64,000 bases of DNA, taken from the sequence record OQ599310, one strand, 5' to 3'. Shown here one piece after another: positions 2,710 to 39,160 of the stretch; position 1 is the first letter of the stretch, and each line of letters opens with the position of its first letter. The notes under the pieces are model-generated. The model searched no databases. It saw only the letters and a program-made list of their open reading frames with translations, and was not told where the DNA came from. This stretch comes from Escherichia phage 55. The position numbers and the translations under genes are program-made.

Positions 2710-3870
2710 ATGAACACTTTTAAAATCGGAACGAATTTTGATTTAGCTCTTCTTGATAAAATCGTAGAGCTCAATAAAACCTATCCTAATAGCTTGATAA
2801 ACGAAGTATATGGCTCTACAAGAGAAATGGCTTTTGTAGCAGCCAGACCTGATTTTAGGCTTCCTGACGTTGACAAAAAGATGTTAGAAGACTACGTTAA
2901 ACGTTGTAACGAATTAGGTATTTGCTTTAACTATACACTCAACACGATAAATCCTGGTTCAAAAAGAGAACTAGTTGAGTGGAAGAAGAAAGCTATTCAG
3001 GATTATGTTCAGTATCTTTGGTCAATAGGCGTATGGCGTATTACTATCGCTAACCCTGTTGTTATGGAAATTGTTCGTGAAGTCAATAAAGATATTGAGA
3101 TTGAAGTTTCAACAATTCTACATGTCGATGCTGTAACTCAAATCAAATACTTGCACGACCAATATAACATCAAAAAAGTCTGTTGCGGAATTCATAAGAA
3201 CCGTTCAGTTTCTTTCCTGAAGCGTGCAGCAGAGTTTTGCAATAAGAACAATATAATATTTGAAGTTCTTGTAAATGAGTTCTGTTCTAATGCTGGTAAA
3301 GGGTATACAACACATTGTAGTTATCGTGACTCTTGCTATATTTTCCATAGTACTGATGTTACCGCTGATGATGCTAAATCCTTAAATGGATATCCAATGC
3401 AGCACTGTATTAAAGCTCGTGATACAGATCCATTTAACTGGTTGAGAACTCGTTTTGTTCGTCCTCAAGATTTGAAACTTTATAATGATATTGGTATCAC
3501 TCAATTCAAAGTTTCAGGACGTACAGGTAGCACAGACTACATTTTGAAAGTTCTTGAAGCATACGCTTCTGAAAAGTTTGAAGGTAATTTGTTAGAACTG
3601 TGGAAGCCTTTAGAGACTATTTTCACTCTTGAAAACGAAACTGAGTTTTCACATACAGTAAATATTGAAACCTCTTTGTTAGATGGCTTTTTAGAAAAAA
3701 GGTGGTTCAGACATCCAGATTTTGATTGTGCTAATGAAATCTGTGGGTCAACGTGTACATATTGTGAAAGGTATTATAAACGTCAATTATCTAAAAACGG
3801 GTTAGCAGAAAACTCCATATCTATTATTGATATAACTAGCTCTGATGACGCTTTGAGATACCCGGAATGA
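2710..3870 (+). CDS. Cys-rich protein with divergent peptidase-U32-like motifs (family that includes Fe-S dependent hydroxylases RlhA/TrhP/UbiU-V); function unknown
   Basis: Segments FNYTLNTI, EVLVNEFCSNAGKGYTTHCSYRDSC and FKVSGRTGSTDY resemble the U32 core and GR motifs; assignment is from memory of the family signature and is tentative. Confidence 0.4.
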   Translation: MNTFKIGTNFDLALLDKIVELNKTYPNSLINEVYGSTREMAFVAARPDFRLPDVDKKMLEDYVKRCNELGICFNYTLNTINPGSKRELVEWKKKAIQDYVQYLWSIGVWRITIANPVVMEIVREVNKDIEIEVSTILHVDAVTQIKYLHDQYNIKKVCCGIHKNRSVSFLKRAAEFCNKNNIIFEVLVNEFCSNAGKGYTTHCSYRDSCYIFHSTDVTADDAKSLNGYPMQHCIKARDTDPFNWLRTRFVRPQDLKLYNDIGITQFKVSGRTGSTDYILKVLEAYASEKFEGNLLELWKPLETIFTLENETEFSHTVNIETSLLDGFLEKRWFRHPDFDCANEICGSTCTYCERYYKRQLSKNGLAENSISIIDITSSDDALRYPE

Positions 3871-11053: not shown

Positions 11054-11302
11054 ATGGAATTATTCGTGGCTAGTTCAGTAGCAGTTTTAATCGCAGGTAT
11101 TGGTTCAATCATCATTTACATGTTGCCTTGGGTAATCGCACTTATTCGTGGCACAAAAAGCACAACAGCAATCTTCTTTGTATCTTTACTCTTTAACTGG
11201 ACGATGGTTGGTTGGATTGGAACTTTAATTTGGTCTATCGTTGCCGAAAAGAAATCGGCTCAGCAGCCTCAACAAGTAATTATTATTCGCGAAAAAGAAT
11301 AA
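11054..11302 (+). CDS. small integral membrane protein (two TM helices)
   Basis: strongly hydrophobic 82-aa translation. Confidence 0.5.
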   Translation: MELFVASSVAVLIAGIGSIIIYMLPWVIALIRGTKSTTAIFFVSLLFNWTMVGWIGTLIWSIVAEKKSAQQPQQVIIIREKE

Positions 11303-11365: not shown

Positions 11366-11659
11366 ATGAAAAAGTTATCATTGGCAGCAATCCTACTTGC
11401 AGTATCATGTGCACCGGCTCCAGTTACGGCAGGTTATGATAAAGACCTCTGTGAGTGGTCAATGACTGCAAATCAAGAAGATGTTGAACAACAAATCTTC
11501 TCTGATATCATGAACATCACTAAACGAGACCGTCCTAATATGGTTAATAAAGTTGTTGAACAACTTAAGTCTGGCGGTATCATGCAGTACAACTATGTTT
11601 TGTATTGTGACCCTAATTTCGATAACAAAGATATCGTAACCGAAATCACAGGTGAATAA
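11366..11659 (+). CDS. secreted or lipoprotein-like small protein
   Basis: signal peptide MKKLSLAAILLAVSCAPAP. Confidence 0.5.
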   Translation: MKKLSLAAILLAVSCAPAPVTAGYDKDLCEWSMTANQEDVEQQIFSDIMNITKRDRPNMVNKVVEQLKSGGIMQYNYVLYCDPNFDNKDIVTEITGE

Positions 11660-11660
11660 T

Positions 11661-12311
11661 ATGATTTATTATATGCACAAAAACGCACCATTTAAATATG
11701 GTAAATTTCCTAATGCACAATGTTATAATATAACGCCGAATGAAAATAATAACGGATACCATATTGGTGTAATTTTTGTAATTGTTAAAGATAACGAAAT
11801 TGTTGCCTGGGCAGATTTTAAAGGTACAACATATGATGTTAATCCAGTGCCTTTCACATATTATAATTTAATGGATTTAGCATACGACTATAATTGGTTT
11901 ACTCATGATACTCTAGCACATGTTGAAGGCGTAGGATTTGACATCTCTTATTCTAGTTATTCATTATGTCCTATGAGCCGAGCTCACGGTAAAGATGTAT
12001 CATATCTTTCAATTCGGAAACGTGTAAACTTCAAACGTAGTACAGAGTATGTTGGTGGACTCTTTGTTAAAGATAATAAAATAACTCGTATTAGTTATCC
12101 TTTAAGTGTAGGTCAAAAAGATGTTGATGTTGATTTAGACTTAACTGAAAGTAACATTAATCGTATTGCTTCTGTATATTTTGATATCGATGAAAAAATT
12201 GTAGTGTGTGGATACGAATTACCACCTGAAGAAAAGGTTGAAGCAATTGAAGTCGAATTAGAAATTTCTGTTGATGACCAAATATTTAATGCATTTATGA
12301 ATCGAGGTTAA
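11661..12311 (+). CDS. hypothetical protein
   Basis: ORF; TAATATG junction with AGGTGA RBS. Confidence 0.45.
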   Translation: MIYYMHKNAPFKYGKFPNAQCYNITPNENNNGYHIGVIFVIVKDNEIVAWADFKGTTYDVNPVPFTYYNLMDLAYDYNWFTHDTLAHVEGVGFDISYSSYSLCPMSRAHGKDVSYLSIRKRVNFKRSTEYVGGLFVKDNKITRISYPLSVGQKDVDVDLDLTESNINRIASVYFDIDEKIVVCGYELPPEEKVEAIEVELEISVDDQIFNAFMNRG

Positions 12312-12312
12312 A

Positions 12313-12510
12313 ATGACTACTGCAATTTGCACTGGTTCTAAAATTAGTGTTTTTACAAGTTTTGAAGATTATGAAGTTGTTTCAAAACACCAATACAATA
12401 TTAGCGTAAAAGCTAATGATGGTGTAATTTGGAATATTCCACACTATGAAGACACTACATATGAAGTCACAGATGCGAACGGTGATAAAGCGATCTTTGT
12501 GATTGATTAA
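12313..12510 (+). CDS. hypothetical protein
   Basis: ORF tightly packed after previous gene. Confidence 0.4.
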   Translation: MTTAICTGSKISVFTSFEDYEVVSKHQYNISVKANDGVIWNIPHYEDTTYEVTDANGDKAIFVID

Positions 12511-12529
12511 ATATACTCAGGAGGTACCT

Positions 12530-12997
12530 ATGGGTATTATTAACACTGCAATAGATTCTGTTTACGCATATAAGTTTATTCGACTAATGCAAAAACCTTT
12601 TACCGAATGGAAAGCGTACGAAGCCAAAATAATCGACGAACGTGGAAGTGTTCTTAAACGTCCTTCTACTCCCGAAGAGAAAGCGGCTTATACACCTTTT
12701 CATGCTTCAGTTCGTTCAATGAAGCGAATGATGAGTACTGTTCCAGGTCTTAATGGAATGGCCTCAATGATGTCTGCCTGGAGTGCTGTAGCTTCACGCT
12801 ATAACATTACTGAAGAACAACAGAAAGAAATATTTAAAGAACTCCCTTTATTTGAGGATATGGTTGCTGGTGATTCAGGTGGCAGTCCTCAAGCTATTGC
12901 ATCAGGAACAACTACAGGTGCAGTCGTAAATAAAGGTCCAGAACAAATTCCTTCCAAGAAAAGAAAGCGAATTAAAGTAAATATTAATAAGTTGTGA
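12530..12997 (+). CDS. hypothetical protein
   Basis: ORF with AGGAGG RBS. Confidence 0.5.
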   Translation: MGIINTAIDSVYAYKFIRLMQKPFTEWKAYEAKIIDERGSVLKRPSTPEEKAAYTPFHASVRSMKRMMSTVPGLNGMASMMSAWSAVASRYNITEEQQKEIFKELPLFEDMVAGDSGGSPQAIASGTTTGAVVNKGPEQIPSKKRKRIKVNINKL

Positions 12998-13036: not shown

Positions 13037-14059
13037 ATGGCTGAATGGATAGATAATGAATTTGCTTATCGTGCGTTTTCTCACCTACCTCGTTTTAGAC
13101 AAATCAATAATTCAAGCACATTTAAATTAACATTTCGATGCCCAGTTTGTGGCGACTCTCAGACAGATGCAATGAAAGCCCGCGGATGGTATTATGGCGG
13201 TACTCCAGGTAATGTGCATTGCTATAACTGTCAATATCATAATACAATTTCTGGATACTTAAAAGAGTACGATGAAGAGCTTTATCGCGAGTATCTAATG
13301 GAAGTTCGTAAAGAAAAAGCTAGAATGGAACCAAAGATTGAAAAGGTTCCTGAAGCTAAGCCGGAGCCAGAGAAAAAGACTATAAATTCTTTGCCGTCTT
13401 GTTCTCGTCTGGACAAGCTGCCTGAAGAGCATCCTATTGTGAAATATGTTAAGTCTCGGTGTATTCCTAAAGAATCGTGGAACAGATTATGGTTCACATT
13501 AGAATGGCCCAAATTGGTCAACAAGATTCAACCTGGTACGTATAAGAAAGAGATTCCCGAACCACGTTTAGTGATTCCTATTTTTAATAAAGACGGGAAG
13601 GCCGAGTCATTCCAAGGACGTGCACTTCGTAAAGATGCTCCTCAGAAATATATCACTATTAAAGCGTTTGAGTCTGCAACAAAAATTTATGGTGTTGAAC
13701 GTGTTAAGGAAGGGGACGTCTGGGTAATGGAAGGCCCTATTGATAGTTTATTCATACCCAATGCAATCGCTATTACAGGCGGCTCAATAGATTTAGATGT
13801 GGTACCATTTAAAGAACGTCGGGTATGGGTAATGGATAATGAACCTAGGCATCCGGATACTATAGCTCGTATGAAGCGATTAGTTGATGCAGGCGAACGT
13901 GTCATGTTCTGGGACCGAGCTCCATGGAGATCAAAGGATGTGAATGATATGGTAATGAAAGAAAATGCAACACCACAAGAAATTTTAGAATATATGAAAC
14001 AGAATATTTCAAGTGGGTTGCATGCTAAAATGAGATTATCTCGTTATTCGAAGATTTAA
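13037..14059 (+). CDS. 61: gp61 DNA primase
   Basis: 340 aa; N-terminal zinc ribbon CPVCGDS...CYNCQ; TOPRIM-like EGPIDSL and DNEPRHPD motifs; position next to 41. Confidence 0.9.
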   Translation: MAEWIDNEFAYRAFSHLPRFRQINNSSTFKLTFRCPVCGDSQTDAMKARGWYYGGTPGNVHCYNCQYHNTISGYLKEYDEELYREYLMEVRKEKARMEPKIEKVPEAKPEPEKKTINSLPSCSRLDKLPEEHPIVKYVKSRCIPKESWNRLWFTLEWPKLVNKIQPGTYKKEIPEPRLVIPIFNKDGKAESFQGRALRKDAPQKYITIKAFESATKIYGVERVKEGDVWVMEGPIDSLFIPNAIAITGGSIDLDVVPFKERRVWVMDNEPRHPDTIARMKRLVDAGERVMFWDRAPWRSKDVNDMVMKENATPQEILEYMKQNISSGLHAKMRLSRYSKI

Positions 14060-14253
14060 ACAAGCCCTATAATAGCAAAGGCCAAATCAACTACAGTATC
14101 CAATGGAACAGAAGGAACCATAACACCATGGGCAACTAACAATGGTGCAATCCCGAAGTTCCATGAAATAATGCCACCTACAACTATTGCAGCGATAGCA
14201 GTTTTCTTTTTATTGCCTTTAATAGCGTTGATTAACGATGGAAGTTTAAACAT
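14056..14253 (-). CDS. small hydrophobic membrane protein on the opposite strand to the surrounding early genes
   Basis: 65-aa ORF, mostly hydrophobic (AIAAIVVGGIISWNFGIAPLLVAHGV); fills the gap between 61 and 56. Confidence 0.35.
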   Translation of the reverse strand: MFKLPSLINAIKGNKKKTAIAAIVVGGIISWNFGIAPLLVAHGVMVPSVPLDTVVDLAFAIIGLV

Positions 14254-14341
14254 AATATCTCCTTAGTTACCTATTATTTATTACGCTTTATAAAATTAAT
14301 GGTAGAATTAACTTTCTTATACTGAATTGAAAGGAAAAATA

Positions 14342-14863
14342 ATGGCACACTTTAACGAATGTTCACAACTTATTTCTGGTGTTGATAAAGCAGAAGAAGC
14401 TTATTTTAATGCTCTGATTCACGAAGATAAAGACCCACTGCAGGTAATGCTTGATATGCAGAAATCTTTACAGGTTCGTCTGGCAAATGACAAGCCTGAA
14501 CATAACAAACATCCTGATGAATTGGCTACTGCTGGTGATGTTGTTGATTGGCTGCGTAATCAGAAAGATTATATTGATGATGAATTCCGTGAACTGCTGA
14601 CTTCACTTGGTGGTATGAGCAATGGTGAAAAAGCCGCTAGCTCTGTATGGAAGCCATGGAAAGCACAACATGCTGAATATCGTAATCGTCGTATTGATGA
14701 ACTGTCTCCTGAAGACCAACTGGAAATTAAGTTTGAAATGATTGATATTCTCCATTTCGTTCTGAACATGTTCCAAGGTCTTGGTCTTACAGCAGAAGAA
14801 ATCTTTAAACTTTATTACCTGAAAAATGCTGAAAATTTCGCACGTCAAGACCGAGGTTATTAA
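14342..14863 (+). CDS. 56: dCTP pyrophosphatase (dCTPase-dUTPase), gene 56
   Basis: MAHFNEC...PLQVMLDMQ...ETAGDVVDW...EIFKLYYLKN..NFARQDRGY matches T4 gp56. Confidence 0.85.
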   Translation: MAHFNECSQLISGVDKAEEAYFNALIHEDKDPLQVMLDMQKSLQVRLANDKPEHNKHPDELATAGDVVDWLRNQKDYIDDEFRELLTSLGGMSNGEKAASSVWKPWKAQHAEYRNRRIDELSPEDQLEIKFEMIDILHFVLNMFQGLGLTAEEIFKLYYLKNAENFARQDRGY

Positions 14864-38500: not shown

Positions 38501-39160
38501 TTATTTAGCCCTTCCTAGTATTCGGACCGCTTGGTTGCATATAGCTGCTAAGCGATCTTCCTCAAGTATATTACTCCCCTTATACCAATACATCGTCACA
38601 GTTCCAGCGTAGATGTTATCCAAATTAAAGTATGGACAACTATACATATAAGAAAGTTCGGCAGTCTTAGATTTTGTAGGCAAAAATGCAAATTCTGATT
38701 TAGATGAGAAATGACGGCCACTTAAATGAATTATATATTCATTGGCCGTTTTATCCACTGGGAATCCGCCAAGGGACTTTTCAGAAATTGTGCTAGGTAG
38801 TTTGCCTTCATAAGCTATAAGGTCGACAAAATAATTTAAGTTTTTAGGTCTGAAAGAATACACAGCACTAAAATCTGCACCAGATGAGATATGAACTATT
38901 TGCAGTTGTTCTAGAGCCGCAGATTCAAAACGTAAAGCTCGTTCTTTTTGGATTATTTCAGTATAAGTATCATACTTAGCTCTTACATAATAATCCAGCA
39001 AAATACTTCCTTTGTACCATATTAGTGCCATTAGGAACAAAAGAATAATTACCGCTACTCGGGACATTAAAACCTTTCCAGTAGCGTTATCTTTGAAAAT
39101 ACGATCTAGCAACCCAAATAGAATATCACTAAGCGAAAATGATACTTTTGGTGTTGCCAT
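38501..39160 (-). CDS. t: holin T
   Basis: 219 aa; SDILFG.LDR.FKDNATGKVL.SRVAV, YMYSCPYFNLDNIYAGT.TMYWY match T4 holin. Confidence 0.9.
   Translation of the reverse strand: MATPKVSFSLSDILFGLLDRIFKDNATGKVLMSRVAVIILLFLMALIWYKGSILLDYYVRAKYDTYTEIIQKERALRFESAALEQLQIVHISSGADFSAVYSFRPKNLNYFVDLIAYEGKLPSTISEKSLGGFPVDKTANEYIIHLSGRHFSSKSEFAFLPTKSKTAELSYMYSCPYFNLDNIYAGTVTMYWYKGSNILEEDRLAAICNQAVRILGRAK

Follow-up and report, generated by a model that had tools for sequence, protein, structure and literature searches.

A small antisense open reading frame of Escherichia phage 55 is probably a late-transcribed membrane protein gene conserved among T-even phages

Escherichia phage 55 (sequence record OQ599310) was analysed over a stretch of 64,000 nucleotides, referred to below as the window. 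An open reading frame (ORF) on the minus strand at 14056..14253 was found to encode, from an ATG start, a protein of 65 residues, MFKLPSLINAIKGNKKKTAIAAIVVGGIISWNFGIAPLLVAHGVMVPSVPLDTVVDLAFAIIGLV. An ORF scan of the window bore out the first-pass annotation in this respect, which had described a 65-residue minus-strand ORF filling the gap between gene 61 and gene 56. From the sequence comparisons set out below we consider, with a probability of about 0.8, that this ORF is a real gene which is transcribed late and whose product is a bitopic inner-membrane protein. The ORF itself is already known: many T-even records list its product as hypothetical, and a transmembrane (TM) segment was predicted for its RB69 counterpart in 2006.

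The first-pass annotation had allowed that the ORF might simply have arisen by chance in AT-rich spacer. Shuffles of the 282-nt gap yielded an ATG-initiated ORF of at least 60 residues in 3.4% of cases, and the length of the ORF is thus by itself weak evidence for a gene. Its codon usage, however, was that of a phage gene. The log-likelihood in frame was 0.63 per codon, as compared with 0.58 +/- 0.20 for 65-codon chunks of real genes and -0.81 +/- 0.28 for out-of-frame chunks, none of which exceeded the score of the ORF. GC content at the three codon positions was 0.49/0.37/0.29, against 0.49/0.37/0.28 in the genes of the phage itself. Atypical codon usage, which the first-pass annotation had named as grounds for dismissing the ORF, was therefore not what was found. 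The ratio of nonsynonymous to synonymous substitution rates (dN/dS, by the Nei-Gojobori method) was 0.05-0.22, or about 0.1, in those Mosigvirus and Tequatrovirus pairs that had synonymous differences. Conservation, dN/dS and codon usage place the ORF far beyond chance, and the synteny, Shine-Dalgarno (SD) and promoter evidence given below likewise contradicts a functionless chance ORF, which we consider hardly credible and have rejected, the reading frame being conserved across genera. These comparisons indicate that the ORF is a genuine, conserved, protein-coding gene of T-even phages that is under purifying selection.

The window protein matched phrog_2024 (E=2.6e-27), its residues 1-65 aligning with profile positions 1-65 of 65, and homologs from T4, Gaprivervirus and Karamvirus matched the same family. 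GenBank contains hypothetical proteins 100% identical to that of the window, among them proteins of several Mosigvirus records. In tblastn searches 100% identity was seen in phages mobillu, SF and JK45, and the ORF was present in ~690-950 phage records (692-948 depending on the query), all of T-even type, whose listed hosts were almost all Enterobacteriaceae. Relatives in which the coding sequence is annotated as a hypothetical protein include BI097_gp029, CPT_Mizar026 (with the remark 'single transmembrane domain') and RB69ORF029w (NP_861719), the last of which is 95% identical to the window protein, differing in 3/65 residues; VR7ORF033w is a further name within the family. The window belongs to a Mosigvirus, an RB69-like T-even phage: a 2.3-kb segment that includes the ORF shares 97-98% identity with phages of this group such as Shigella phage SHSML-52-1. 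A scan of IMG/VR for the locus returned 9 loci only, all from close relatives. Synteny was kept in at least seven genera (Mosigvirus, Tequatrovirus, Gaprivervirus, Karamvirus, Jiaodavirus, Moonvirus and Marfavirus) and in one metagenomic T4-like contig. In each, the ORF lies on the opposite strand, convergent with the 3' end of the primase gene 61 and on the side of gene 56, while protein identity across these groups falls to 17-30%. Conservation in related phages, proposed as a check by the first-pass annotation, thus came out in favour of the ORF.

In T4 the homolog is a protein of 66 residues (NC_000866, 17738-17938, plus strand; L003 2239-2439 among our extracted loci) that is 55% identical to the window protein and whose gene has the same TTAA overlap with gene 61. 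It occupies a gap of 309 bp between dam and gene 61 that is 'empty' in the reference record NC_000866. The gene is named dam.1 in the T4T record (ADJ39749.1, HM137666) and RB32ORF030w in RB32/RB51, and a recent re-annotation of T4 gives dam.1 as a hypothetical protein of phrog 2024. The window ORF is orthologous to T4 dam.1 and RB69ORF029w and agrees with them in length, position, TTAA overlap, upstream late motif and SD sequence; T4 differs in that the dam methyltransferase gene stands between dam.1 and gene 56, whereas the ORF of the window directly faces gene 56. The first-pass annotation had assigned the small T4 genes 61.1 to dmd to the interval between genes 61 and 56. This was mistaken: in T4 the genes 61.1, 61.2, sp, 61.4 and dmd are found upstream of gene 61, and so they are in the phage group of the window, where the separate Spackle gene (sp) is at 11366-11659; what T4 carries between genes 61 and 56 is dam together with the unannotated homolog of the window ORF. 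Literature searches for phrog_2024 and for dam.1 returned no paper on the gene, those for HM137666 genome surveys only, and those on T4 ribosome profiling nothing relevant.

The suggestion that the mostly hydrophobic product could be a membrane peptide was supported by hydropathy analysis, with Kyte-Doolittle means over 19 residues reaching 1.9 across residues 18-41, and by TM-helix prediction, which the first-pass annotation had also proposed: TMHMM placed a single TM segment at residues 21-41 of RB69ORF029w, and no signal peptide was predicted. An AlphaFold2 model built from an alignment of 35 sequences (mean predicted local distance difference test score 84.6) consists of helices at residues 4-11, 15-41 and 51-61, with a loop at 42-50. 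A search with this model in Foldseek recovered only family members from BFVD and nothing from the PDB. The N-terminal tail carries a charge of +5 and the C-terminal tail of -2, a bias seen family-wide, and from this basic N-tail and acidic C-tail an N-in/C-out orientation is predicted by the positive-inside rule. The protein would thus be inserted in the inner membrane with one TM segment. Its C-terminal helix is short, acidic and amphipathic, the last 22 residues carrying two Asp and two Pro.

Among the 35 aligned sequences, W31, N32, P37 and G43 were invariant, P47 and G63 were nearly so, and position 52 held a conserved acidic residue (D52 in the window protein). The family core, W-N-[FYL]-x3/4-P-x5-G-x3-P-x4-[DE] following a basic N-tail, is present in the window protein. 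The invariant Trp-Asn pair, and the kink and loop formed by the invariant Pro-x5-Gly-x3-Pro, led us to propose an association between helices: a polar Asn beside a Trp midway along the TM segment, with a Pro kink after it, points to a specific contact between helices in the membrane. The protein would act through such contact, be it with another copy of itself or with a different protein as partner.

Upstream of the ORF stands a T4-type late promoter motif, AATAAATA (14275..14282, minus strand), which is the A(-13) variant of TATAAATA and has its first base 29 nt upstream of the A of the start codon. A strong SD sequence, AAGGAG (14259..14264, minus strand), was read 5 nt 5' of the ATG; the record of phage Mizar marks it as the ribosome-binding site. 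The complete layout is therefore AATAAATA-12 nt-AAGGAG-5 nt-ATG, and the ORF points in the late-gene direction. As the motif corresponds to positions -13 to -6 (PMC1524935), transcription is predicted to start 6 nt 3' of it, at 14269 on the minus strand. Counting both strands, the 64-kb window holds 11 NATAAATA octamers, and 5/11 stand 28-39 nt before an SD sequence and ATG, namely those of genes 34, 36, t and soc and that of the ORF. The t gene, with TATAAATA-11 nt-AAGGAGG-5 nt-ATG, has a layout near-identical to that of the ORF.

The same elements recur across the family. In 9/9 lineage representatives either NATAAATA or ATTAAATA was found 20-41 nt upstream of the ATG amid diverging flanks, where the background density of the loci would give 0.006 such motifs per locus in an interval of that size, and AGGAGG or AAGGAG precedes the ATG in 8/8 genus-level homologs inspected. 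The motif reads GATAAATA in the T4 homolog, CATAAATA in Gaprivervirus and the metagenomic contig, ATTAAATA in Karamvirus and Moonvirus, both GATAAATA and CATAAATA in Jiaodavirus, and a perfect TATAAATA in Marfavirus. Of 50 T4 late promoters that have been listed, 32 are perfect, 9 carry A(-13), which is the commonest variant, and 1 has TA->AT (Geiduschek and Kassavetis, PMC2988020), and T(-13) is poorly conserved in RB69 and its relatives (Nolan et al., PMC1524935). We also counted in favour of lateness that distant homologs in non-T4 phages end tail-gene operons and lie on the same strand as the tail genes. A scan for sigma-70 promoters at the ORF gave nothing meaningful. From the layout of the motif, its conservation in 9/9 lineages and its standing as an accepted T4 variant we infer, with strong support, that the ORF is transcribed late by gp55-RNA polymerase from AATAAATA, starting near 14269. 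The first-pass annotation had set the ORF within a unidirectional early region; from ~11.3 to 16.7 kb the annotated genes apart from the ORF are indeed all on the plus strand, but with the late-type promoter motif of the minus-strand ORF the setting is not early throughout.

Some observations weigh against the ORF being a late gene for a single-pass membrane protein. In Gaprivervirus pairs dN/dS was 0.14-0.74, a range based on very few substitutions. The 22 residues at the C-terminus are hydrophobic too (Kyte-Doolittle ~1.7-1.8), so that a two-helix hairpin topology is possible. A hidden Markov model scan by Nolan et al. in 2006 reported 31 late promoters in RB69, none of them at ORF029w.

At its 3' end the ORF converges with gene 61 (DNA primase, 13037..14059, plus strand), and the stop codons of the two genes overlap in the palindrome TTAA (14056..14059). 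The same 4-nt overlap of stops was found in T4, RB69, CkP1, KM16, P545 and the metagenomic contig (L024). As far as position 11300 the minus strand showed no intrinsic terminator 3' of the ORF, and the late transcript would therefore run on into gene 61: it would be a monocistronic mRNA with a short leader that is then read antisense to the primase gene. On the other side the ORF diverges from gene 56 (dCTPase, 14342..14863, plus strand). The middle (MotA-box) promoter of gene 56, GCTTTA-12 nt-TAGAAT (14285..14308, plus strand, with GCTTTA at 14285-14290 and TAGAAT at 14303-14308), corresponds to the predicted RB69 promoter Pm:16038 with a score of 21.6 (Nolan 2006 supplement). The late motif and this middle promoter stand back-to-back, 2 nt apart (14275-14308), and the 88-bp intergenic region would therefore hold two promoters of different temporal classes.

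Local variation around the gene was also seen in relatives. In the Gapriverviruses the gene is followed directly by a tandem paralog of Marfavirus type (L014 3207-3407; L018 ~3265-3405; L007 2709-2810), and in Yersinia phage vB_YenM_P8 this second copy is a truncated remnant, annotated as 'DNA packaging ATPase', which adjoins an inserted homing endonuclease. In Escherichia phage EAWsc9 (L005 ~2693-2730) the stop codon of the Gaprivervirus homolog is followed at once by an 8-bp perfect hairpin, GGAATAAT-attcac-ATTATTCC, without a T-run. Neither Mosigvirus nor T4, in both of which the gene has a stop codon that overlaps gene 61, has such an element 3' of the gene. Upstream of gene 61 in this Mosigvirus group, homologs of imm and imm.1 lie between dmd and sp (window 11366-12997; L001 209-2998). 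This placement is annotated in SHSML-52-1 and RB69, and the T4 stretch examined has no imm there.

To look beyond the T-even phages, 1.84 billion cluster representatives were searched exhaustively with a profile. No more than 17 proteins reached E<=0.001, all of them small and with a single hydrophobic segment, and none bridging to a characterised family. Distant members retain the pattern W-N-x-x-x-x-P...G...P...[DE]. Two lambda-J-type contigs and one T4-related contig, which are not typical T-even phages, share a module made up of a 94-98-residue protein with a TM segment and a coiled coil, endonuclease VII and, as the last gene, the dam.1-like member (L023 3260-4210; L026 4272-5159; L028 4279-5213). 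In 2/3 of these (L026, L028) the endonuclease VII gene runs at its end into the start of the dam.1-like gene, and the module is co-directional with the preceding large genes, which are tail-tip J-like in L023 and L028 and gave no family match in L026. In another contig the distant homolog is the last gene of a prophage. Word-indexed homology searches returned phage hypothetical proteins only. Searches of Pfam and NCBIfam returned no family for the window, T4 or Gaprivervirus proteins, and for the CkP1 homolog only matches at noise level, to the Borrelia P13 porin. P0125, a distant member of 59 residues found on a short metagenomic contig (L025 129-1383), is encoded 17 nt upstream of a 352-residue RelA_SpoT-domain protein, and the pair could be a small-alarmone-synthetase module.

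As to function, our tentative proposal is that the protein may be an accessory which, through association of its TM segment, modulates late envelope or lysis events and which derives from a holin-like ancestor. Such an accessory would be related, with its single TM segment, to the last TM segment and tail of a GTA-type 3-TM holin, and would not be a holin standing alone. In a bolder form, which we hold to be doubtful, the dam.1 family as a whole would be a late single-TM offshoot of the GTA-type 3-TM holins and would play an as yet unrecognised part in controlling lysis or the envelope, for example by tuning the triggering of the T holin, lysis inhibition or membrane integrity through the invariant Trp-Asn motif of its TM segment. 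The kinship is suggested by the distant members. Two of them matched phrog_3427, 'holin' (E=5e-4 and 2e-3), and 4/10 matched PF11351, GTA_holin_3TM, at E 0.03-0.1, with scores of 13.6-15.3 bits against a Pfam gathering threshold of 24.8 bits. Three of these alignments fell at profile positions ~66-117, covering the last TM segment plus tail, and that of P0129 began at position 30. The 'GTA-like holin' of Pseudanabaena phage Pan1 (Pan1_96) was itself sub-threshold for PF11351 at 14.8 bits, has a single predicted hydrophobic, TM-like segment, and was aligned with our family profile by hhalign at a probability of 88%. The founding member of PF11351, rcc00556 of RcGTA, is required for lysis and release (PMC5026251). 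On the other side, the link to holins falls below every curated threshold and is nil for the window protein, and TM segments also draw spurious matches. A remote and partial kinship to the 3-TM holins, as judged from these alignments, is thus possible but unproven. The dam.1 family resembles the GTA-type holins in being small, membrane-located and late, and differs from them in having one TM segment in place of three and about half the length.

Two database records go further and label the protein a holin outright (EAWsc9, 'holin family protein' in GenBank; OE5505, 'Holin' in UniProt). A late promoter motif before a gene for a small membrane protein would suit such a label, as would the sub-threshold similarities of the distant members. 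However, the window, T4 and Gaprivervirus proteins matched no holin model, and in place of the three TM segments of PF11351 there is one by TMHMM and one long helix in the AlphaFold2 model, so that membership of PF11351 fails both on score and on TM number. Nor does the ORF adjoin an endolysin gene in T-even phages, as holin genes usually do, and the window already encodes the canonical T holin (38501-39160, PF11031, E=1e-90); as the phage has a T holin of its own, the label on these records is unsupported. Moreover, T4 t-null mutants fail to lyse despite the presence of dam.1, which is therefore insufficient as a holin. We rejected a bona fide stand-alone holin as very unlikely. The T4 holin T and the antiholin RI are late inner-membrane proteins of T-even lysis, either bitopic or SAR-anchored. 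The ORF protein is comparable with them in that the t gene shares its arrangement of late promoter, SD sequence and ATG, and in being a predicted single-pass N-in/C-out protein of the inner membrane. In contrast, T has a large periplasmic domain where the ORF protein has ~23 residues, and the ORF protein has no PF11031 match, no sequence similarity to either protein and no known genetic tie to r or t phenotypes.

A different role for a late membrane protein would be in immunity, counter-defence or superinfection exclusion, the last of which the first-pass annotation had suggested; the protein would then act on a membrane component of the host or of an incoming phage, and not on the lysis machinery of the phage itself. 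The small size, the predicted bitopic inner-membrane topology and the invariant polar motif within the TM segment are in keeping with this, and the diverged tandem paralogs of the Gapriverviruses, one of them decayed in vB_YenM_P8, fit an accessory gene of fast turnover. Siphophage and prophage contigs place the homolog just after tail-tip genes or at the prophage end, sites that often house exclusion genes and morons, and the surrounding region of the window encodes Sp, with Imm annotated there in relatives. Imm and Sp are likewise small envelope proteins of the same genome region. In contrast to the ORF, however, the known T-even exclusion genes imm and sp are early, lie in the plus direction and belong to other families, whereas the ORF is on the opposite strand, has a late-type promoter and has no Pfam match. 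Searches of Pfam, NCBIfam and the annotated PHROGs gave no match that would point to such a role (PADLOC was not searched), and for the toxin-like function also suggested by the first-pass annotation no family match to a Hok-type type I toxin was found in Pfam or NCBIfam. The dN/dS of ~0.1 within genera is also unlike that of the usual arms-race gene, and we regard a function in exclusion or counter-defence as rather unlikely. It could also be envisaged that the functional product is the transcript, a late antisense RNA into gene 61 that silences early messages, with the peptide incidental. The convergent overlap of stop codons and the lack of an intrinsic terminator on the minus strand through 11300 speak for this. 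However, the purifying selection on the reading frame, the conserved SD sequence and start, and the residues that stay invariant across genera at 17-30% identity count against it. Furthermore, the Gapriverviruses and vB_YenM_P8 keep the gene though a gap, the second paralog or a homing endonuclease intervenes before gene 61, and homologs occur in phages without a nearby primase gene. An antisense RNA as the main product is thus highly improbable, although an antisense effect on gene 61 mRNA is plausible as a side role of the protein-coding transcript.

As a sequence feature the ORF is ordinary, and its modest interest lies partly in the omission of the gene from the reference T4 genome record. 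The ORF seems to be a late gene placed antisense inside a cluster of early replication genes, with its promoter back-to-back with the middle promoter of gene 56, and it specifies a strongly conserved but uncharacterised small membrane protein in the most studied family of phages. Were the dam.1 family indeed an offshoot of the GTA-type holins, then T4, the best-studied lysis system, would have a missing player that its reference annotation leaves out.

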